NCBI GenBank assembly: GCA_964016885.1
Contig: OZ024741.1
Coordinates: forward strand, 333,622,001-333,686,000
Direction: 5' to 3'
DNA: 64,000 nucleotides
From: Eledone cirrhosa
Taxonomy: Eukaryota
Below, piece by piece: positions 1,951-64,000 of this stretch (the stretch's first letter is position 1; each line of letters begins with the position of its first letter). A model generated the notes under the pieces. The model had not been told where the DNA came from. It worked only from the letters and a program-made list of their open reading frames with translations, and ran no database searches. A program made the translations under genes and the position numbers.

Positions 1951-4900
1951 AGAAGTTGATATTTGTTGTATTCAAGAGACTAGGTGGAGAGTGGGTTCTG
2001 CCAGATTCATCGTGGGCAAAAAACGATGCTATAAACTTTTCTGGGTGGGAAACGACAATGGACTGGGTGGAGTAGGAATTATGTTAGCTGAACAATGGGT
2101 AGATAAGGTAATCGACGTAAATAGAGTAAATGATAGAATAATTAAAATAAGGCTAGTTCTAAATAAAACTACTGTGACAATAATATCCGCTTATGCACCC
2201 CAAATCTGGTCTACTTGACGTTATAAAGGACAGGTTCTATGAGACGTTAATGCACACTACCTTCCAAATAACCGACAGCGACTACCGAATTATTGCTGGC
2301 GATCTAAACGGCCACGTTGGACAACATAGTGATGGCTATGATGGAATCCATGGAGGCTATGGGGTTGGAAATAGAAATGAGGAAGGCTTCAGAATCCTAG
2401 AATTCTGTGACGCCAATAACCTAACTATCTGTAACACAAACTTCAAAAAACGTGAAAACCACTTGATCACCTATAGATCAGTGGACCACGCCAGCCAGAT
2501 AGATCATATCCTTACTAGAAGACGGGACAAAGTGTCTGTTGTAAACACTAAATCCCTCCCTCATGAAGAATGCACATCCCAACGTAGCCTAGTAGTTAGT
2601 GACCTCACAGTCAGAAATAGACGTACTCGATGACAGAGGAGGCCTACCTTGAGGAGAGGAATATGGAAGTTGAAGGATCCCATAGCCAGTGACAAATTTA
2701 AAAGCTTATTACTTGATGCCTTTGACAAAAAGGAAGAGCAATTAGAGTCGTGCGATATAGAGGAACAATGGCAATTCTTGAAAGTGAACCTGCTGAAAGC
2801 AACGGATGAAATCTATGGCTGGAGCAGACCTATTGGCAGGAGGAGAGTAACTTGGTGGTGGAACAGTAAAGTAGAAGAGACAATCAAGGCCAAAAAGCAG
2901 GCTTGGAAAGTATGGCAGGATGGGGGAAGTAGAGAGCACTATCAAGTGGCCAGGAGAAAAGCTAAGAGATAAGTGTACCTTGCAAAAGGGGAAGCAGAGG
3001 ATAGAAAGTTCAAGCATGTTCTACAACGTGAGGACCAAAATCGCGAGGTGTTCAGGATTGCTGGACAATGTGTCAAGGAAAACCGTGATATTGTCGGGGA
3101 GAAGTGTATCCGTAATGATAATGGTGTACTTGCACTCACTGATACTGATAAGAAGATAGCCTGGAAGTGTCACTACGAGAGACTATTAAATGAGGAGAAT
3201 AAATGGGAAAAAGATAGTCTGCCCCAAATCGATCCAATAAAAGGACCAGCAGTGCAAGTTAAAGGTAGTATAATAAGTAAGGCAATCAAAGATATGAAGA
3301 CAGGCAAGGCAGCTGGGCCTTCGGAGATAGTTGCTGAGATGTTGAAGGCATCTGGAATGGTGGGACATACTATGGTCACCCGTATAGTTAACCAAGTAAT
3401 AGAGAATGGGATCACACCAAAAGACTGGCGTAGCAGCAGAATCATTAACTGCTACAAGGGTAAAGGAGATGCTCTAGATAGAGGAAACTATAGAGGCATT
3501 AAGTTAGTTGCCCAGGTCATGAAGGTCACAGAAAGAGTTATAGTGCAAGTAATCAGAGAGCAAATTGATCTAGATGAAATGTAGTTTGGGTTTGTGTCAG
3601 GTAAAAGTACCACAGATGCTCTTTTCCTTGTACGACAACTACAAGAGAAGTACCTAGCTAAAAGTAAACCTCTCTACTTAGCTTTTGTAGACCTGGAAAA
3701 AGCCTTTGACAGAGTCCCCCGCTCCATTATCTGGTGGACTCTTAGAAAACTAGGTGTAGATGAATGGCTTGTGAGAGCTATACAAGCTATGTATAATGAA
3801 ACAGTCAGTAAGGTTAGAATTAACAATGAATATTGTGAAGAATTTAGTGTAAAAGTTGGTGTTCACCAAGGCTCTGTCCTTAGCCCCCTTCTATTTATTA
3901 TTGCCTTTCAGGCTATAACAGAGGAGTTCAAGACCGGCTGCCCATGGGAACTCCTATACGCAGATGATCTAATGCTCATAGCTGAATCAATGGCTGAACT
4001 ACAAAAGAAATTCCAAACATGGAAGCATGGCCTAGAATCAAAAGGCCTTAAAGTTAACTTGTCTAAGACTAAAGTCATAGTTTGTAGAAAGGTAAATAAG
4101 GCACAGGTACCCTCAGGGAAATGGCCTTGCTCAGTGTGTAGGAAAGAAGTAGGCAGAAATTCAATTTTATGTCCCAAATGCAAAGTACATAAAAGATGTA
4201 GTGGGATCACAGGTAAACAATCTAAGAACGTAGACTTTATGTGGCCGATGCTCAGGTCCAATAGGTAGCAAGTGTCCACAGGATACTAGCCCCTTCTATT
4301 GCCCTGATGGTTCTATAGAAATAGTAGACACTTTCCATTACCTGGGTGACGAAATCAGCAGTGGTGGAGGGTATTCTGAAAGTACAGTAGCCAGAGTCAG
4401 AACGGGATGAAAAAAGTTCAGAGAGCTTATACCGCTGTTGGCCACAAAAGGTTTCTCTCTAAAAATAAAAGGCAATTTGCATGATGCTTGTATACGAACA
4501 GCAATGCTACATGGCAGTGAGACATGGGCATTGCGTGCAGAGGACCTGCGTAGACTGGAAAGGAACGAAGCATGCATGCTCCACTGGATGTGTAATAGTA
4601 ATATACGTGAACGGCAAAGCATAAATGAACTAAATGAGAAATTAGGAATAAGAGGGATCAGATGTCGTTTACTCGAGAGAAGACTACGTTGGTATGGTCA
4701 CGTGATGCACATGAAAGATGACAGCTGTATAAAAAAGTGCAGGGCGATCAAAATTGATGGTAGTTACGGAGTAGGTAAACCCAGAAAAACCTGGGACGAT
4801 CTGATAAATTCCGACCTTACACACTTGCACCTCTCTAAGACAATGTCACTGGACCGAGATCTTTGGCGCTACACAGTAATACAGAAGACACGCCTTGTCT

Positions 4901-5340
4901 GTGTATAAAGTGAAACCTACAGTCAGTAGGCACCTCTTAACCAAATATACACCCCAATCCACTACCCCTACCCTATCCTCCCACTCCCACCAACACCACC
5001 CGCTCTCTATAAAATTGCTAACACAACATCCAGTCCAAATAAATGAGATAAATGAGATCGAGATCGAGATCGAGTTCGTGTAGTTGTTACGAGAAAAAAA
5101 AATACACAGTCCAGGCTATAATGTGGCCGTATAGGTAACACGGTAAAAAGTTCCCAGTTCCACACTGTAAATGTGGTTGGGGTTAGGAAGGGCATCCAGC
5201 CCTAGAAAACCTGCCAGATAGTCCTATATGAGCGAGACATGGTCACCCGACCAACCTTGCCTCAAGTGAGACAACTCCCGTCTAACCCATGTTAGTGTGG
5301 AAAATGGACATTAAACGAAGATAATGATGATGATGATGAT
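1951..5340 (+). mobile_element. 5'-truncated RTE-clade non-LTR retrotransposon inserted in the satellite, ending in a (GAT)n tail
   Basis: Abrupt satellite junctions on both sides. APE and RT motifs are in order. The 3' end reads ...ATTAAACGAAGATAATGATGATGATGATGAT. Confidence 0.93.
1952..4908 (+). pseudogene. Disrupted APE endonuclease/reverse transcriptase ORF of the RTE element
   Basis: Motifs VDICCIQETRW, IISAYAP, IAGDLNGHVG, SQIDHIL, YRGIKL, FVDLEKAFDRV, GVHQGSVLSPLLF, LLYADDL, RLRWYGHV. Stops at ~2631, 2970, 3582 and 4408; frameshifts near 2210 and 4240. Confidence 0.93.
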
Positions 5341-8300
5341 GTGCAACACAACACAGTTCTGTTATATAGTGTACAGCACAACACAGTTCTGTTATATAGT
5401 GTAGTGTACAGCACAACACACAGTTCTGTTATATAGTGTAGTGTGCAACACAACACAGTTCTGTTATATAGTGTAGTGTACAACACAACACAGTTCTGTT
5501 ATATAGTGTAGTGTACAGCACAACACAGTTCTGTTATATAGTGTAGTGTGCAACACAGCACAGTTCTATTATATAGTGCAGTGTACAACACAGCACAGTT
5601 CTGTTATATAGTGTAGTGTACAACACAGCACAGTTCTGTTATATAGTGTAGTGTACAGCACACAGTTCTGTTATATAGTGTAGTGTACAGCACAGCACAG
5701 TTCTGTTATATAGTGTAGTGTACAGCACAACACAGTTCTGTTATATAGTGTAGTGTACAGCACAGTTCTGTTATATAGTGTAGTGTACAGCACAATACAG
5801 TTCTGTTATATAGTGTAGTGTACAGCACAGCACAGTTCTGTTATATAGTTTAGTGTACAGCACACAGTTCTGTTATATAATGTAGTGTACAACACAACAC
5901 AGTTCTGTTATATAGTTTAGTGTACAGCACACAGTTCTGTTATATAGTGTAGTGTACAACATAACACAGTTCTGTTATATAGTGTAGTGTACAGCACAAC
6001 ACACTTCTGTTATATAGTGTAGTGTACAACACAACGCAGTTCTGTTATATAGTGTAGTGTACAACACAACACAGTTCTGTTATATAGTGTAGTGTACAGC
6101 ACAACACAGTTCTGTTATATAGTGTAGTGTACAGCACAGCACAGTTCTGTTATATAGTGTAGTGTACAGCACAACACAGAGTTCTGTTATATAGTGTAGT
6201 GTACAGCACAGTTCTGTTATATAGTGTAGTGTACAACACAACACAGTTCTGTTATATAGTGTAGTGTGCAACACAACACAGTTCTATTATATAGTGTACA
6301 ACACAACACAGTTCTGTTATATAGTGTAGTGTACAACACAACACAGTTCTGTTATATAGTGTAGTGTACAACACAACACAGTTCTGTTATATAGTGTACA
6401 GCACAACACAGTTCTGTTATATAGTGTAGTGTACAACACAGCACAGTTCTGTTATATAGTGTAGTGTACAACACAACACAGTTCTGTTATATAGTGTAGT
6501 GTACAGCACAGCCCAGTTCTGTTATATAGTGTAGTGTACAACACAACACAGTTCTGTTATATAGTGTAGTGTACAGCACAACACAGTTCTGTTATATAGT
6601 GTAGTGTACAGCACAGCACAGTTCTGTTATATAGTGTAGTGTACAGCACAGCACAGTTCTGTTATATAGTGTAGTGTACAGCACAACACAGTTCTGTTAT
6701 ATAGTGTAGTGTACAGCACAGTTCTGTTATATAGTGTAGTGTACAGCGCAACACAGTTCTGTTATATAGTGTAGTGTACAGCACAACACAGTTCTGTTAT
6801 ATAGTGTAGTGAGCAACACAACACAGTTCTGTTATATAGTGTAGTGTACAGCACAACACAGTTCTGTTATATAGTGTAGTGTACAACACAACACAGTTCT
6901 TTTATATAGTGTAGTGTACAGCACAGCACAGTTCTGTTATATAGTGTAGTGTACAGCACAACACAGTTCTATTATATAGTGTAGTGTACAGCACAGCACA
7001 GTTCTGTTATATAGTGTAGTGTACAGCACAACACAGTTCTGTTATATAGTGTAGTGTACAACACAGCACAGTTCTGTAATATAGTGTAGTGTACAACACA
7101 GCACAGTTCTGTTATATAGTGTAGTGTACAGCACAACACAGTTCTGTTATATAGTGTAGTGTACAGCACAGCACAGTTCTGTTATATAGTGTAGTGTACA
7201 GCACAACACAGTTCTGTTATATAGTGTAGTGTACAGCACAGCACAGTTCTGTTATATAGTGTAGTGTACAGCACAACACAGTTCTGTTATATAGTGTAGT
7301 GTACAGCACACAGTTCTGTTATATAGTGTAGTGTACAGCACACAGTTCTGTTATATAGTGTAGTGTACAGCACAGTTCTGTTATATAGTGTAGTGTACAG
7401 CACAGTTCTGTTATATAGTGTAGTGTACAACACAGCACAGTTCTGTTATATAGTGTAGTGTACAGCACAGCACAGTTCTGTTATATAGTGTAGTGTACAG
7501 CACAACACAGTTCTGTTATATAGTGTAGTGTACAGCACAGCACAGTTCTGTTATATAGTGTAGTGTACAGCACAACACAGTTCTGTTATATAGTGTAGTG
7601 TACAGCACAGTTCTGTTATATAGTGTAGTGTACAGCACAGCACAGTTCTGTTATATAGTGTAGTGTACAGCACAACACAGTTCTGTTATATAGTGTAGTG
7701 TACAGCACAGCACAGTTCTGTTATATAGTGTAGTGTACAGCACAACACAGTTCTATTATATAGTGTAGTGTACAGCACAGCACAGTTCTGTTATATAGTG
7801 TAGTGTACAGCACAACACAGTTCTGTTATATAGTGTAGTGTACAGCACAACACAGTTCTGTTATATAGTGTAGTGTACAACACAACACAGTTCTGTTATA
7901 TAGTGTAGTGTACAGCACAGCACAGTTCTGTTATAGAGTGTAGTGTACAGCACAACACAGTTCTGTTATATAGTGTAGTGGACAACACAACACAGTTCTG
8001 TTATATAGTGTAGTGTACAGCACAACACAGTTCTATTATATAGTGTAGTGTGCAACACAACACAGTTCTGTTATATAGTGTAGTGTACAACACACCACAG
8101 TTCTGTTATATAGTGTACAGCACAACACAGTTCTGTTATATAGTGTAGTGTACAACACAGCACAGTTCTGTTATATAGTGTAGTGTACAACACAACACAG
8201 TTCTGTTATATAGTGTAGTGTACAGCACAGCACAGTTCTGTTATATAGTGTAGTGTACAACACAACACAGTTCTGTTATATAGTGTAGTGTACAGCACAA

Positions 8301-10926
8301 CACAGTTCTGTTATATAGTGTAGTGTACAGCACAGCACAGTTCTGTTATATAGTGTAGTGTACAGCACAGCACAGTTCTGTTATATAGTGTAGTGTACAG
8401 CACAACACAGTTCTGTTATATAGTGTAGTGTACAGCACAGTTCTGTTATATAGTGTAGTGTACAGCGCAACACAGTTCTGTTATATAGTGTAGTGTACAG
8501 CACAACACAGTTCTGTTATATAGTGTAGTGAGCAACACAACACAGTTCTGTTATATAGTGTAGTGTACAGCACAACACAGTTCTGTTATATAGTGTAGTG
8601 TACAACACAACACAGTTCTTTTATATAGTGTAGTGTACAGCACAGCACAGTTCTGTTATATAGTGTAGTGTACAGCACAACACAGTTCTATTATATAGTG
8701 TAGTGTACAGCACAGCACAGTTCTGTTATATAGTGTAGTGTACAGCACAGTTCTGTTATATAGTGTAGTGTACAACACAGCACAGTTCTGTAATATAGTG
8801 TAGTGTACAACTCAGCACAGTTCTGTTATATAGTGTAGTGTACAGCACACAGTTCTGTTATATAGTGTAGTGTACAGCACACAGTTCTGTTATATAGTGT
8901 AGTGTACAGCACAGTTCTGTTATATAGTGTAGTGTACAGCACAGTTCTGTTATATAGTGTAGTGTACAACACAGCACAGTTCTGTTATATAGTGTAGTGT
9001 ACAGCACAGCACAGTTCTGTTATATAGTGTAGTGTACAGCACAACACAGTTCTGTTATATAGTGTAGTATACAGCACAGCACAGTTCTGTTATATAGTGT
9101 AGTGTACAGCACAACACAGTTCTGTTATATAGTGTAGTGTACAGCACAGTTCTGTTATATAGTGTAGTGTACAGCACAGCACAGTTCTGTTATATAGTGT
9201 AGTGTACAACACAACACAGTTCTGTTATATAGTGTAGTGTACAACACAACACAGTTCTGTTATATAGTGTAGTGTACAGCACACAGTTCTGTTATATAGT
9301 GTAGTGTACAGCACAGCACAGTTCTGTTATATAGTGTAGTGTACAGCACACAGTTCTGTTATATAGTGTAGTGTACAACACAGCACAGTTCTGTTATATA
9401 GTGTAGTGTACAGCACAGCACAGTTCTGTTATATAGTGTAGTGTACAGCACAGCACAGATTTGTTATATAGTGTAGTGTACAGCAGAACACAGTTCTGTT
9501 ATATAGTGTAGTGTACAACACAGTTCTGTTATATAGTGTAGTGTACAGCACACAGTTCTGTTATATAGTGTAGTGTACAACACAACACAGTTCTGTTATA
9601 TAGTGTAGTGTACAACACAACACAGTTCTGTTATATAGTGTAGTGTACAGCACACAGTTCTGTTATATAGTGTAGTGTACAACACAGCACAGTTCTGTTA
9701 TATAGTGTAGTGTACAGCACAGCACAGTTCTGTTATATAGTGTAGTGTACAGCACAGCACAGATTTGTTATATAGTGTAGTGTACAGCAGAACACAGTTC
9801 TGTTATATAGTGTAGTGTACAACACAGTTCTGTTATATAGTGTAGTGTACAGCACACAGTTCTGTTATATAGTGTAGTGTACAACACAACACAGTTCTGT
9901 TATATAGTGTAGTGTACAACACAACACAGTTCTGTTATATAGTGTAGTGTACAGCACACAGTTCTGTTATATAGTGTAGTGTACAGCACAGCACAGTTCT
10001 GTTATATAGTGTAGTGTACAGCACACAGTTCTGTTATATAGTGTAGTGTACAACACAGCACAGTTCTGTTATATAGTGTAGTGTACAGCACAGCACAGTT
10101 CTGTTATATAGTGTAGTGTACAGCACAGCACAGATTTGTTATATAGTGTAGTGTACAGCAGAACACAGTTCTGTTATATAGTGTAGTGTACAGCACAGCA
10201 CAGTTCTGTTATATAGTGTAGTGTACAACACGACACAGTTCTGTTGTATAGTGTAGTGTACAGCACAGTTCTGTTATATAGTGTAGTGTACAGCACAGTT
10301 CTATTATATAGTGTAGTGTACAGCACAGCACAGTTCTGTTATATAGTGTAGTGTACAGCACAGTTCTGTTATATAGTGTACAGCACAACACTGTTCTGTT
10401 ATATAGTGTAGTGTACAGCACAGCACAGTTCTGTTATATAGTGTAGTGTACAGCACAACACAGAGTTCTGTTATATAGTGTAGTGTTCAGCACAGCACAC
10501 AGTTCTGTTATATAGTGTACAGCACAACACAGAGTTATGCTATATAATGTAGCGTACAGCACAACACAACACAGTTCTGCTATATAGTGTAGTGTACAGC
10601 ACAACACAAAACAGTTATGCTATATAGTGTAGTGTACAGCACAACACAACACAGTTCTGCTATATAGTGTAGTGTACAGCACAACACAAGACAGTTCTAC
10701 TATATAGTGTAGTGTACAGCACAACACAACACAGTTATGCTATATAGTGTAGTGTACAGCACGACACAACACAGTTCTGCTATATAGTGTACAGCACAAC
10801 ACAACACAGTTCTGCTATATAGTGTACAGCACAACACAACACAGTTATGCTATATAGTGTAGTGTACAGCACAACACAACACAGTTCTGCTATATAGTGT
10901 AGTGTACAGCACACAGTTCTGTTATA
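5341..10926. repeat. ~35-bp satellite, right part, with a divergent ~40-bp unit at the distal edge
   Basis: Same monomer as 1-1950. From ~10500 the units carry GCTATAT and an extra ACAAC. Confidence 0.98.
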
Positions 10927-11191: not shown

Positions 11192-12497
11192 CAGGGTGCG
11201 GATGATATTTGTTCGCAAGATTACTGTCTAGGAAAAAATAACACAGTAGTTTTATTTTTTTAAATATATTTATCAAACTTGGGTCAGTTTGTCTTCATGA
11301 CTTGTTCTTTCGATCTCACTCGATAAACCCGCCATTGGCTTTGATGACGGCCTCAAGGCGACCTCAGGACCCCGGCTACAGGCCTTCGTCACTGTCCCCC
11401 GACTTAGGCCCTTAAAGGCACTTGTAATCCTGGCCTTCAGATCGTCTTTCGTATTGCAGCTAGATCTGTTGGTGTCTCGTTTCTCCCCGCCCCACACAAA
11501 GAATTCGAAGGGGTTGCAGTCAGGCAATCTGGGAGGCCAGATGTTAGAAGTGTGGTCGACGAAGTTCTCTGACAGCCAGGCTTGGGTCTTTCGGCTGGTA
11601 TGGCAGGGCGCTGAGTCTTGCTGCCACACGTATGGCCTACCTGCAGCTATCTGGTCAATCCAGGGCTTTACTACCTCGCTCAGAATGCGGATGTAGCCAT
11701 CGGTGTTCAGCTTGAGGCCCTCAGGGAAGAAGTGAGGTGGGATGACGTCACCTTGACTGCTGACGACACCTAAGACCAATGTTGTCGCTGGAAACTTTGT
11801 CTGCATGACTCTGGGCACGTCTTTGGATGAGACAGCGAGCCACCTGTTGTTCTGGGAGTTGATCTTCTGGTCTTGGCAGAAGTTTTTCTCATCGGAGAAA
11901 AACCACAGCATGTCTGGTTCCAGTGGGTGTTTCAACTTGTTGATCAGCTTCTTTGCATGCTTCAATCGCTTTTCTTGCATCGCCTTTGACAGAAATTGTT
12001 CTTTCCTCATCTTTTATGAAACGTAGCGAATGTCTTCATGTACCACCAGCCTAATGAGCTTTTCATCCACGCCTTTCTCCCTTGCAATGGCACGCATCGA
12101 CTTGGTAGGTTCATTGTTGATGATATCCTGAACTTCAGCGACGAATTCGAGCTTTCTGAAGGCATCAGATCGTCGATCATGTGTTTTCCTCTCTGATGTT
12201 GCTTCGTAGTCAAATCCTGAATCTTCCAATTCCTTTCTGACCTTTTCCACCATTCTCCTGCTGACGCTGAGAAAGTCTGAAATTTCCTTATTTGTCCTCT
12301 CGGCGCAGATTCCAAGAAGAACTCTGTATCTCTTCCACAAATTTGGAGGTTCAAAATTATTCATAATCAATTATTCTGAAAATAAATAATGGAAATATAG
12401 TCACTGTTTTTATGAAGACAAGAGTGACAATGGAAGTAAAAAAAATTAGCATAAAATTAGCAGTTGAAAATTGCGAACTAATATTGTCCACACCCTG
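11192..12497 (-). mobile_element. Tc1/mariner-superfamily DNA transposon, maT (DD37D)-like, 1306 bp
   Basis: Imperfect TIRs CAGGGTGCGGATGATATTTGTTCGCAA / TTGCGAACTAATATTGTCCACACCCTG. TA on both sides, within a (TA)n tract. Confidence 0.95.
11316..12370 (-). pseudogene. Inactivated transposase
   Basis: HTH-like N-terminus, then WFFSDEK, WQQDSAPCH and WPPRLPDCNPFE. In-frame TAA at 12014-12016. A frameshift near 11370 precedes RLEAVIKANGGFIE*. Confidence 0.92.
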
Positions 12498-15175: not shown

Positions 15176-15351
15176 ATACTTGGGGAGGGTCATATTGCTG
15201 TAATAATATTGCCAGAAATAATAACAGAACACACTCACTGTTTGGTTGGTTTTCGCTTCTGCATCTTTTATATCTCCATAGTTAATTCATTTGGCCATCA
15301 ATATATATATATATATATATATATATGTAACAAAATTTAAAATAAAGATCG

Positions 15352-15500
15352 CTTCTACAGGACTAGAACTGTTTCTTTTTAATGAAACAGTTCTAGTCCT
15401 GTAGAAGCCATTTCTATATAAAATGTTGTTGTATGCACACTACTAATGCATTGAGTACCTTACTTACTGTGGTTACCCCCAATTGAACCCAGGACTCTCT
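15352..15500. repeat. Palindromic dispersed element (CTTCTACAGGACTAGAACTGTTTC...GAAACAGTTCTAGTCCTGTAGAAG), Penelope-LTR-like
   Basis: 24-bp perfect inverted arms. Related copies at 22661, 43011 and 52021. Confidence 0.7.
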
Positions 15501-15901: not shown

Positions 15902-15934
<33 letters not shown>

Positions 15935-15940
<6 letters not shown>

Positions 15941-16582
15941 GGAATAGAATGAAACGAAATTTCATTTCTCACTCTTAGTATGGCACTTACTTAAATGTAA
16001 GTATGTATGTATACGTACATACATATATGTATACAGACGTACAGTAGTATGTATATATATATACATACATGCACACATATATATATCTATGCACGTATCG
16101 GTTTACCGAACATTTATTATAATGCTCGGTTTGTTTGTTTGTAAACAAACAAACAGCCCGAATTACGCCGTACAGTGTTTAGGCAACCACATCACCTTTT
16201 TGTTCAACACTGACACAGGAAAGATGTACTAATTTCAAGCTTATTAGCTATCGTCAGCATCGTATACCTTCCTGCCAGATGGTTGAACGTCTGAAAGTAT
16301 ATACTTTCCTTATGCATATTAACGGCTGAGCAGCCTAATTTGCATATCGAGTGAGTTCAGTCGGCCGGGCGCACCGTAAACGATAAATGGAATAGAATGA
16401 AACGAAATTTCATTTCTCACTCTTAGTACGGCACTTACTTAAATGTAAGTATGTATGTATGTATACGTACATACATATATGTATACAGACGTACAGTAGT
16501 ATGTATATATATACATACATGCACACATATATATATGCACGTATTGGTTTACCGAACATTTATTATAATGCTTGGTTTGTTT
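15935..16582 (-). mobile_element. Retrozyme-like element: ~1.45 copies of a 448-bp unit (~200-bp direct repeats) in (TA)n
   Basis: 15935-16136 is nearly identical to 16383-16582. The interior is non-coding and contains an HHR. Confidence 0.75.
16202..16288 (-). ncRNA. Minimal type I hammerhead ribozyme
   Basis: Minus strand reads GATG-CTGACGA-T-AGCT-AATA-AGCT-T-GAAA-TTA-GTA-CATC. Stem I GATG/CATC extends via AGGAAG/TTTCCT, CTGGCA/TGTCAG and GTTCAAC/GTTGAAC. Confidence 0.8.
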
Positions 16583-17104
16583 ATATATATATAAATATAT
16601 TGGACTCAGAACATCTATATACCACAGAGCATGCTATCAGATGAAATATCTAGTGAAACTTAAAATAACAATTATGTCAAGTGTATCTGTTCAACTGCAT
16701 TGAAACAAATATTTTTTGTATAACTTTTATAATTGTAAAACCTTATTGGATATTGAATACAATCTCATAACAAACTGAAATGTACTCAGAATACAAATAG
16801 TAAATCTCATGAATATGTAAATTCAAAAAGTGTATAAAAAGGTTAAATAGGTTTAGAATTATTGATAGAAAAATTGCACTGGATTTGTTTAGCCCTAGGT
16901 GAGTCCTGATCATAGAGACCTATTTACAAACGTTCAAACCGTGATCAACTCATGCTTCTTTAATCCTTTCATTACTGTATTTTTACAAAAGATACTGCTA
17001 TGAGAATCTTTTTATTGAAATAAACCATGTATGTGAAATATGCTAACAATACAGATAGCATGAAATTACAAACACAAATGTCATAGCTGTCAGAATTTAA
17101 TACA

Positions 17105-22642: not shown

Positions 22643-22824
22643 ATATATAATATAGAAATAACTTCTACAGGAAAAAAACTGTTTCATTCATATGAAATCA
22701 TCAGGAACATCACTTTCCTGAGGATTTCATACAAATGAAACAATTCTAGTCCTGTAAAATATATTTTTGAATCCACCTATATATAATCATCATCAATTTT
22801 ACATCTGTTATTTCATGCTTGTAT

Positions 22825-40004: not shown

Positions 40005-40568
40005 GGTGTAATAATGTTACTGTGAAAGTGAAATATCAACTGTAATATAACGTTATTGTGTCACATTAGTTGTACAGTTAGTACACATCTCCAGCTCTCA
40101 GTGTTGGCTTGAAACATCTTTCAGTATATTGTCCAATGTAAGGTATCAGCAATTGGCTGATTTTATATTCAATATCATATTGCTGTTGTTGTTTGGCCCT
40201 AAATCTAGTTGGTATATCTGGAGGGGTGGAGCTAGCAAGGATTAGACAGGTTTACATAAACTAAGTCCGTACTGAAGTGGAGGTACTGACCTCCCAGACA
40301 GATCAGGAGCTTATGTATAATAAACATACATAGTTCTTCTTATAAAGATTTTAAGCTGTTACCTGATCCCAGCTATCCCAGGATCTGTATGAGAATACCA
40401 CTGAGGTAGCTGTGACATAATCACATTTTAAAGTACCCATAATGAGACTCATGTATGTACATTATATACTGATACTCCATCAGTTATGACGATGAGTGTT
40501 CCAGTTGATTCAATCAACAGAACAGCCTGCTTATGAAATTAACATGTATTTCACAGATCACAGACACA

Positions 40569-41159
40569 TGTACCTTTAATGTAATTCTCAAGGTGATTGA
40601 GTGTGACACAGAATATGAGAAGGCCAGCCCTTCAAATTAAAGGTACTGGAGCAACATGTAATAGAGTGTCTTGCTCAGGGACACAGCTCCTTACCAGGAA
40701 TTGAACTCACAATCTTACAATCATGAGTCGAATACTCTAACCACTAAGTTATGCAACTTTACTATGTACCTTTAATGTAATTCTCAGGGTGATTGAGTGT
40801 GACACAGAATATGAGAAGGCCAGCCCTTTAAATTAAAGGTACTGGAGCAACATGTAATAGAGTGTCTTGCTCAGGGACACAGCCCCTTGCCAGGAATTGA
40901 ACTCACAATCTTACAATCATGAGTCGAATACTCTAACCACTAAGTTATGCAACTTTACTATGTACCTTTAATGTAATTCTCAGGGTGATTGAGTGTGACA
41001 CAGAATATGAGAAGGCCAGCCCTTTAAATTAAAGGTACTGGAGCAACATGTAATAGAGTGTCTTGCTCAGGGACACAGCCCCTTGCCAGGAATTGAACTC
41101 ACAATCTTACAATCATGAGTCGAATACTCTAACCACTAAGTTATGCAACTTTACTATGT
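40569..41159 (-). repeat. 3 x 196-bp tandem array of a SINE 5' portion
   Basis: Units start at 40569, 40765 and 40961. Each has a tRNA-like head on the minus strand. Confidence 0.92.
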
Positions 41160-43001: not shown

Positions 43002-43066
43002 TTTTCTCCCGAATGAAACCGTTCTAATCCTGTAGAAGCCTTTTCTATATATATATATATATATAT

Positions 43067-51919: not shown

Positions 51920-52221
51920 TGTAGATTCCTGAGTTGAGTTGGGGAGGGGGATAAGCACAGTTAGAAAAAAGATGCTCAATACATTGATAGAGTATAGGCA
52001 TCTTTATTATATATAGAAATGACTTCTACATGACTAAAAATGTTCTGTTTTACTCGTATAAAATCATCAGGAGATATCTCATGATTTCATATGAATGAAA
52101 CAGTTCTAGTCCTGTAGAAGTCATTTCTCTCTCTCTCTACATACATACACGTATATATATATATATATATATATTGAGTACCTTACTTACTGTGGTTACC
52201 TCCGATTCAACCCGGAATAAC

Positions 52222-61737: not shown

Positions 61738-64000
61738 ACTACTACCTCCAACACTACCAACACTATTACCACCAGCACCAACACTACCACTACCTCCAAC
61801 ACTACCAACACTATTACCACCAGCACCAACACTACCACTACCTCCAACACTACCAACACTATTACCACCAGCACTAACACTACCACTACCTCCAACACTA
61901 CCAACACCATTACCACCAGCTCTAACACTACCAACACTATTACCACCAGCACCAACACTACCACTACCTCCAACACTACCAACACCATTACCACCAGCAC
62001 CAACACTACCACTACCTCCAACACTACCAACACTATTACCACCAGCACTAACACTACCACCCACTAACTCCAACACTACCAACACTATTACCACCAGCAC
62101 TAACACTACCACTACCTCCAACACTACCAACACTATTACCACCAGCACCAACACTACCACTACCTCCAACACTACCAATACTATTACCACCAGCACTAAC
62201 ACTACCACTACCTCCAACACTACCAACACTATTACCACCATCACCAACACTACCACTACCTCCAACACTACCAACACTATTACCACCAGCACTAACACTA
62301 CCACTACCTCCAACACTACCAACACTATTACCACCAGCACTAACACTACCACTACCTCCAACACTACCAACACTATTACCACCAGCACTAACACTACCAC
62401 TACCTCTAACACTACCAACACTATTACCACCAGCACTAACACTACCACTACCTCCAACACTACCAACACTATAACCACCAGCACTAACACTACCACTACC
62501 TCCAACACTACCAACACTATTACCACCAGCACCAACACTACCACTACCTCCAACACTACCAACACTATTACCACCAGCACCAACACTACCACTACCTCCA
62601 ACACTACCAACACTATTACCACCAGCACCAACACTACCACTACCTCCAACACTACCAACACTATTACCACCAGCACCAACACTACCACTACCTCCAACAC
62701 TACTAACACCATTACCACCAGCACTAACACTACCACTACCTCTAACACTACCAACACTATTACCACCAGCACTAACACTACCACTACCTCCAACACTACC
62801 AACACTATTACCACCAGCACTAACACTACCACTACCTCCAACACTACCAACACTATTACCACCAGCACTAACACTACCACTACCTCCAACACTACCAACA
62901 CTATTACCACCAGCACTAACACTACCACTACCTCCAACACTACCAACACTATTACCACCAGCACTAACACTACCACTACCTCCAACACTACTAACACTAT
63001 TACCACCAGCACTAACACTACCACTACCTCCAACACTACCAACACTATTACCACCAGCACCAACACTACCACTACCTCCAACACTACCAACACTATTACC
63101 ACCAGCACTAACACTACCACTACCTCCAACACTACCAACACTATTACCACCAGCACTAACACTACCACTACCTCCAACACTACCAACACTATTACCACCA
63201 GCACTAACACTACCACTACCTCCAACACTACCAACACTATTACCACCAGCACCAACACTACCACTACCTCCAACACTACCAACACTATTACCACCAGCAC
63301 TAACACTACCACTACCTCCAACACTACCAACACCATTACCACCAGCACTAACACTACCACTACCTCCAACACTACCAACACTATAACCACCAGCACCAAC
63401 ACTACCACTACCTCCAACACTACCAACACTATTACCACCAGCACTAACACTACCACTACCTCCAACACTACCAACACTATTACCACCAGCACTAACACTA
63501 CCACTACCTCCAACACTACCAACACTATTACCACCAGCACTAACACTACCACTACCTCCAACACTACTAACACTATTACCACCAGCACTAACACTACCAC
63601 TACCTCCAACACTACCAACACTATTACCACCAGCACCAACACTACCACTACCTCCAACACTACCAACACTATTACCACCAGCACTAACACTACCACTACC
63701 TCCAACACTACCAACACCATTACCACCAGCACTAACACTACCACTACCTCCAACACTACCAACACTATAACCACCAGCACCAACACTACCACTACCTCCA
63801 ACACTACCAACACTATTACCACCAGCACTAACACTACCACTACCTCCAACACTACCAACACTATTACCACCAGCACTAACACTACCACTACCTCCAACAC
63901 TACCAACACTATTACCACCAGCACTAACACTACCACTACCTCCAACACTACCAACACTATTACCACCAGCACCAACACTACCACTACCTCCAACACTACC
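61738..64000 (+). repeat. 48-bp minisatellite (AAC ACT ACC ACT ACC TCC AAC ACT ACC AAC ACT ATT ACC ACC AGC ACY), possibly a mucin-like exon
   Basis: About 47 units, open to the window end. The plus frame reads NTTTTSNTTNTITTST. Confidence 0.95.

Follow-up and report, generated by a model that had tools for sequence, protein, structure and literature searches.

The 648-nt element embedded in (TA)n at 15935–16582 of the window (the whole 64-kb stretch of DNA analysed) is one copy, about 1.45 head-to-tail units long, of a very abundant multi-copy family whose 448-bp unit bears a predicted type I hammerhead ribozyme on its minus strand. We propose, with a probability of roughly 0.7, that this is a family of non-LTR retrozymes, likely inserted by the enzyme of a Penelope-like element (PLE) from an RNA in which the ribozyme cleavage junction was intact, probably a circle. 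The retrozyme class is already known, and this family, a further member of it, bears PLE-like marks in very many copies: a fixed 3′ end, a (TA)n target and a partial tandem. The family makes two questions testable, namely the identity of the enzyme that mobilises animal retrozymes and the role of the circle as the true template; the lengths of insertions and their internal identity relative to the cut site bear directly on the circle model. It would probably extend retrozymes to cephalopods, and it may constitute a sizeable, mis-filed part of the genome's repeats.

Two direct repeats, R1 and R2, flank the 246-bp interior of the copy with a period of 448 (Table 1). Identical bases occupy 193 of their 196 aligned positions, the ten gap positions all lie in microsatellite-like AT-rich tracts, and each of the three mismatches is a CpG/TpG difference. 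The two ~200-bp repeats of period 448 given in a preliminary description of this DNA are therefore confirmed, as are the TA tracts that it placed on both sides, (TA)17 on the left and a shorter run on the right. It had also seen no credible ORF, in agreement with a longest ATG ORF of 49 aa, a longest stop-free run of 94 aa in any frame, and two stop-free frames within the element in which no Pfam family passed its curated cut-off (best sub-threshold match E=0.0086, 15.6 bits versus a cut-off of 25). The GC content of the 448-bp unit is 37%. No second copy of the element was found in the 64-kb window by blastn or nhmmer. ARAGORN returned 0 tRNA genes, leaving a tRNA-like appearance of 16350–16376 unsupported.

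Read in the hammerhead sense, the copy comprises 356 nt up to the predicted cut and then 292 nt to its fixed end. Because the 200 nt of the upstream repeat are fewer than these 292 nt, R2 does not include a second hammerhead; with one hammerhead, the locus cannot release a unit-length monomer, as the preliminary description had rightly judged. The other end of the copy (16582, equivalent to 16136) falls inside one arm of a (GUUU)n/(AAAC)n hairpin.

Table 1. Features of the element and its insertion site, in window coordinates (X1, X5, X7 and X21 are sequencing runs described in the text)
Feature	Position	Strand	Remarks
Target microsatellite (TA)17	15904..15937	.	Fixed end (3′ in hammerhead sense); last 3 bases, ATA, common to element
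Repeat R1	15935..16136	-	3′ 202 nt of full 448-nt unit; string of AT-rich hairpins
(GUUU)n/(AAAC)n hairpin	16129..16154	-	At R/interior junction
Unique interior, 246 nt, ribozyme-bearing	16137..16382	-	Covered by runs X1, X21 and X5; X7 16137-16347 only
Predicted type I hammerhead with extended bulged helix I	16202..16288	-	Descriptor, position map, folding
Predicted cleavage site after GUA	16226..16227	-	292 nt upstream of fixed 3′ end
Helix III hexamer AUUAGU (family majority ACUAGU)	16228..16233	-	Self-complementary; predicted dimer interface
Helix II: U.U mismatch, 4 bp, AAUA loop	16237..16250	-	Position map
Core CUGANGA (C3-A9)	16251..16257	-	CUGACGA in window copy
Octamer ATGCAAAT in hairpin	16338..16345	-	111 nt upstream of predicted cut; putative promoter element
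Repeat R2, 200-nt 5′-truncated upstream copy, pseudo-LTR-like	16383..16582	-	No room for second hammerhead
Short TA run at other insertion end	16582..16600	.	Sequence

On the minus strand, the motif reads, in order, GAUG, CUGACGA, U, AGCU-AAUA-AGCU, U, GAA, AUUAGU and A, followed by the predicted cut and CAUC; the GAAA spans 16236–16233 and the cleavage triplet is GUA. The numbering used here and the predicted cleavage after GUA follow established hammerhead chemistry. Both the descriptor and the position map confirm the intact core that had been described, and helix I, GAUG:CAUC, indeed continues into a long bulged helix (16288–16202), the fold of which has a z-score of -3.3, with 1 of 200 shuffles equally stable. 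The earlier account does not mention that helix II has a U.U mismatch at its base (16250/16237). Ten CUGANGA..GAAA strings occur in the window, among which only the motif at 16202–16288 passes a descriptor requiring helices I and II; this single match compares with three matches in 200 block-shuffled windows. In computed folding, the active fold of the window copy lies 5.7 kcal/mol above the minimum free energy fold, which mispairs the core.

A search with Infernal hammerhead models had been proposed as a check, but the Rfam covariance models miss the motif: searches of a 3.5-kb piece at E up to 5 and of a 264-bp piece at E up to 10 found no hammerhead, and neither did a search of the whole window at the gathering score. 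Because Rfam misses it, standard annotation would overlook the motif. Rfam miRNA matches fell below the gathering score and arise from AT-rich hairpins, and were rejected.

By its sequence, the motif is classed as a canonical metazoan type I hammerhead rather than the minimal PLE form, and the term "minimal" previously applied to it does not hold under the definitions of PMC4209133. There, as far as the accessible text goes, the canonical metazoan form has a helix II of 4 bp and a helix III of 1–2 bp with a palindromic loop. The minimal hammerhead (min-HHR) is likewise of type I, with a palindromic 15.2–16.2 region and a dimer model, but it combines a 7–8 bp helix II with a bulged base following A9, with G10.1-C11.1 and with an ill-defined loop 1, whereas the present motif has a 4-bp helix II, the U.U mismatch and a long, structured helix I. 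Compared by features, not by sequence identity, the closest parallels noted in the partial texts are amphibian: axolotl HHR_Amex1 also has a one-bp helix III and a palindromic tetraloop, HHR_Amex2 also has U.U at the base of helix II, and the axolotl hammerheads and newt satellite 2 share an internally looped, extended helix I and predicted cleavage as dimers. In contrast to HHR_Amex1 and HHR_Amex2, both weak features are joined here in one motif, and in an invertebrate; invertebrate retrozyme hammerheads are mostly reported to have a stable helix III (PMC7761336). The U.U mismatch occurs in Hydra-clade PLEs as well as in axolotl.

A search of public sequencing runs listed 23 runs, 20 of them with the element and no RNA run among these 20, and four were placed on 16137–16800, none of which is on record as RNA. 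X1, represented by contigs, may be the source sample; X21 consists of RAD-seq reads under the same species label as X1, from another sample and study; X5 (organism B) and X7 (organism D) carry two other organism labels. Placement passed over 16433–16602 as a repeat, and the comparison therefore covers little of R and does not reach the 5′ ends at which other copies stop. The element was matched by 6,933 contigs of X1 and 33,249 reads of X21, while X5 contributed 17 contigs, which cover the interior and reach into the start of R, and X7 six contigs that follow the element over 16137–16347 only and then continue into other sequence. The sequence is thus far from single-copy, the case that the preliminary description had named as speaking against its reading. 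In X1, summed depth reaches 1.0–1.9 million over 16206–16343, versus 5–13 in the flank; summed contig depth is not copy number and, with overlapping contigs allowed for, it gives only an order of magnitude, 10^4–10^5 copies. The interior shared with X7 could belong to a sister retrozyme or to the pLTR of an autonomous partner.

Some features of these data were set aside. Coverage along the unit is too uneven for the depth profile to be taken as a truncation gradient. In X21, AATT words coincide with the piled read ends (16337/16340 and 16409), with the loose ends (16163, 16337 and 16409) and with opposite-strand joints; all of these are regarded as RAD-seq restriction/ligation artefacts and rejected as ends of RNAs or elements. 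Pattern scans of viral contigs, metagenome contigs and genome contigs gave 0 matches.

The junctions of the unit recur in other copies. In 55 X1 contigs (TA)n stands directly before 16383, and in 47 further X1 contigs a TA run occupies the loose end before 16396; the 3′ end in the hammerhead sense is therefore fixed and located in TA microsatellites. Records 5 and 7 of X1 and records 12 and 14 of X5 run across the junction from interior to R, and the end of R precedes 16147 in 28 X1 contigs and one X5 contig. Since X1 and X5 both contain the two junctions, the unit joins back onto itself and no ORF intervenes. Homologues attached to Penelope ORFs, which had been put forward as grounds for dropping the reading, were thus not what these junctions revealed. 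Loci with two hammerheads were not encountered; no placed contig or read is long enough to span the whole stretch or two hammerheads, a 1.45-mer alone already contains both unit junctions, and the variable 5′ end is known from the window copy alone.

Variation across copies was taken from 40 of 79 variants. Among these, N7 (16253) is the only variable core position. Position 16232 is G in 753,535 of 755,930 X1 depth (99.7%), in ~99% of X21 reads and in all X5 and X7 depth, which places C at position 15.2 and turns the helix III hexamer into the perfect palindrome ACUAGU, from which the window copy had correctly been described as one change away. Computed self-duplex energies are -6.8 kcal/mol for ACUAGU and -2.2 kcal/mol for the AUUAGU of the window copy. 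Likewise, C makes up 98% of X1 depth at 16222, which places G at position 1.5 and restores the pair 1.5:2.5; helix I thereby gains a fifth pair, and a bulge of 6 nt faces loop II. Given C at 15.2 and G at 1.5 in the family majority, the window copy carries two private changes that are predicted to weaken its ribozyme, and it is probably an inactive offspring and a dead end.

Covariation of the stems had been suggested earlier as a test. At pair 1.3:2.3, 16224C (50%) is accompanied by 16260A (54%) in a first X21 read set, and 16224C (6%) by 16260A (6%) in a second, where 16260C makes up 84%; parallel shifts are found in X5 and X7 too. These unphased changes are compatible with G.U versus U.G pairs across subfamilies, as against U-A in the window copy, but the X1 frequencies at the same pair do not match (32% versus 63%). 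One subfamily has substitutions at 16270 and 16271 that would disrupt pairing in distal helix I, unless compensating substitutions lie beyond the 40 of 79 variants considered. A second subfamily (X21, X5, X7) differs at 16184–16199, just downstream of helix I, and at 16264–16292, in distal helix I, with an 8-base deletion near 16289.

The family resembles the metazoan non-LTR retrozymes in being non-coding and arranged head to tail, in its unit of 448 nt with 37% GC and a predicted canonical type I hammerhead, in its many copies and in the highly paired predicted circle of its unit; retrozymes have been described as tandemly arranged units of 150–450 bp that are low in GC and contain type I hammerheads (Cervera & de la Pena 2020, PMC7229834). 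Under the definition of Li et al. (10.64898/2026.07.22.740005), in the text available, a 1.45-mer with one hammerhead is a "monomer" and not an "active" retrozyme. A fixed (TA)n end as in this family was not found described for retrozymes in the accessible parts of PMC7229834 and 10.64898/2026.07.22.740005, and a 2020 review, also cited in part, states that retrozyme repeats show no motif pointing to a partner enzyme. Our literature search returned no cephalopod retrozyme or hammerhead family; the repeat may stand under another name in Repbase, Dfam, the Zenodo library of PMC13282606, or the supplements of PMC7229834 or the 2026 preprint.

The insertion pattern points to PLEs, which are marked by a (TA)n bias and 5′-truncated partial tandems (PMC8557442). 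The element displays a partial tandem with a 5′-truncated upstream copy, a fixed 3′ end and a (TA)n target. Such a target is known in the Hydra and Naiad clades, and Hydra-clade PLEs combine it with hammerheads, located near the 3′ end as here (Craig et al. 2021, PMC8557442, in part); their ACU...AGU helix III spans 9 nt versus 6 nt in the present motif, and the present element differs in having no ORF. By our own count in File S2 of that paper, as far as accessible, U.U occurs in 14 of 25 Hydra-clade families and ACU...AGU in 16 of 25. Cephalopod Naiads are described as long inactive and without canonical hammerheads (PMC8557442). In Xenopus, retrozymes are related to PLE pLTRs, and a link to PLEs was argued in 2026 (10.64898/2026.07.22.740005). 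We regard Hydra and Neptune PLEs as candidates for the partner enzyme. Hydra-1_Obim, the single Octopus member of the Hydra clade in the PMC8557442 supplement, which targets (TA)n and bears a hammerhead, was considered as a sequence donor and rejected, as its hammerhead and 3′ end differ by eye. Exact short words of the element are absent from the accessible Naiad/Chlamys/Hydra consensus file (PMC8557442 supplement), in which line breaks can hide matches. The analysis turned up no autonomous partner, and no ORF combining RT and GIY-YIG was found in or beside the element, either in the 11–22 kb ORF list or among 14 frames compared with Pfam.

These observations suggest the following cycle. Loci with at least two hammerheads would be transcribed on the minus strand, and two hammerheads would pair via ACUAGU and cut after GUA, releasing a monomer of ~448 nt that a host ligase could circularise. 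A PLE endonuclease would then nick (TA)n, and the 3′ ATA end would serve as primer on the RNA, at a point 292 nt beyond the cut. The RT would cross the re-joined cut site, continue past one full unit (here for 648 nt) and stop in the hairpin, leaving two repeats that would be identical at insertion and afterwards decay at CpG. A cleaved linear monomer primed at the fixed end could, by deduction, yield only 292 nt and no intact ribozyme. As the window copy extends through the cut site and contains 200 nt twice, either its template presumably had an intact junction, as a circle or an uncleaved multimer, or the RT jumped template; we favour the circle. R1 and R2 differ at CpG only and were therefore identical at insertion, as expected if a single molecule was copied repeatedly, but also if the source was a young tandem. 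The predicted circular fold of the unit is 69% paired at -139 kcal/mol with a z-score of -6.6, a value inflated by AT-rich palindromes (interior alone, z -2.5). Circles have been demonstrated for coral, mussel and axolotl retrozymes in published work. The preliminary description had inferred a non-autonomous, ribozyme-bearing retroelement, possibly reverse-transcribed some 1.45 times around a circle. Its first part is supported by the family, the recurring ORF-free junctions and the palindromic helix III; its second part, the turns around a circle, is one possible reading, since the same DNA would result from an uncleaved tandem transcript or from a template jump.

The same equivalence underlies a different account of the family, in which PLE-type insertion proceeds without any circle: the RT would copy uncleaved read-through tandem transcripts or jump template, and the weak hammerhead would cut rarely or have another role. 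PLEs are thought to jump template in making partial tandems, Naiads form partial tandems in (TA)n without canonical hammerheads (PMC8557442), and the near-absent helix III and the U.U mismatch are both tied to weak monomer activity in axolotl in the texts available. An intact-looking motif need not cut, given that only one of nine Xenopus retrozyme dimers was cleaved and eight were not (Li et al., 10.64898/2026.07.22.740005, in part). Against this account, subfamilies and sequences under three organism labels all retain the core and the perfect palindrome, circles are established for the coral, mussel and axolotl elements, and the identity of the repeats at insertion fits one template read twice, albeit also a young tandem source. 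We consider insertion without a circle unlikely.

It is much less probable that the element is the pseudo-LTR or 3′ remnant of an autonomous PLE, a truncated element and not a self-standing unit. PLE hammerheads do lie near the 3′ end, the U.U and ACU...AGU layout matches that of many Hydra-clade hammerheads (the 14 and 16 of 25 families above), and in organism D only 16137–16347 is shared before other sequence follows. However, what lies upstream of the ribozyme, both in the window copy and in contigs under two organism labels, is the unit's own 3′ end and not an ORF; a PLE ORF was missing from the 11–22 kb ORF list and from the 14 Pfam-scanned frames; and the hammerhead, which the duplication does not include, differs from the minimal PLE type (PMC4209133). 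Least probable of all, and very unlikely in our view, is mobilisation by a non-PLE LINE (RTE, Dong-R4, Tx1) or amplification at the DNA level in the manner of a satellite. Some Dong and Tx1 families target microsatellites, and the window contains an RTE-type RT. RTE, Dong-R4 and Tx1 families are reported as recently active in Octopus vulgaris (PMC13282606). The element itself nevertheless lacks any poly(A) or simple-repeat tail, the combination of partial tandem, fixed 3′ end and type I hammerhead is the PLE pattern, and the many copies with (TA)n at one exact point argue against the expansion of an array by unequal crossover.

Within the preferred reading, that of a retrozyme family inserted by a PLE enzyme, the octamer ATGCAAAT, which occurs as a word four times in the 64-kb window, deserves mention. 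The octamer is part of the snRNA-type promoter of newt satellite 2. By analogy, the octamer in the unit is a possible snRNA-type promoter element, but only a lead, because it also lies within a hairpin. The snRNA-type promoter of newt satellite 2 is cited in PMC2220036. A far more specific picture, in which a cephalopod retrozyme of at least tens of thousands of copies, on the axolotl scale, forms dispersed (TA)n insertions of 1.x units with a fixed 3′ end, an obligate-dimer hammerhead of the Hydra-clade U.U/ACU..AGU kind and its own octamer promoter, strikes us as improbable in its entirety. If true, it would be the clearest natural record of a PLE reverse-transcribing a ribozyme-made RNA circle, and it would name the partner clade.

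The remainder of the window is rich in other repeats. A 35-bp satellite occupies 1–1950 (~56 copies) and 5340–10926 (~163 copies). Between these parts, at ~2184–4908, lies a decayed RTE-type LINE in which Pfam matched an endonuclease and an RT. Among the named eukaryotic sequences listed, Octopus vulgaris matches the RT frame best, at 68% identity and in fourth place of 120, which is suggestive of an octopod host. A broken Tc1/mariner-type transposase with weak HTH and DDE_3 matches lies on the minus strand at 11273–12370 and adjoins TA tracts. A MITE-like, near-perfect hairpin of 102 bp (15329–15430) has partial relatives at ~22645–22759, 43012–43051 and 52006–52128. Three head-to-tail copies of 196 bp at 40568–41159, 98% alike, represent a recent local tandem duplication and are composed of pieces of two dispersed SINE-like repeats with about ten more occurrences in the window. 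Finally, 61741–64000 holds a 48-bp array of more than 43 copies, 97% alike and with extreme strand skew, whose period, a multiple of 3, gives long Thr/Asn-rich or Pro/Leu/Thr-rich open frames; it is either a satellite or a mucin-like exon.
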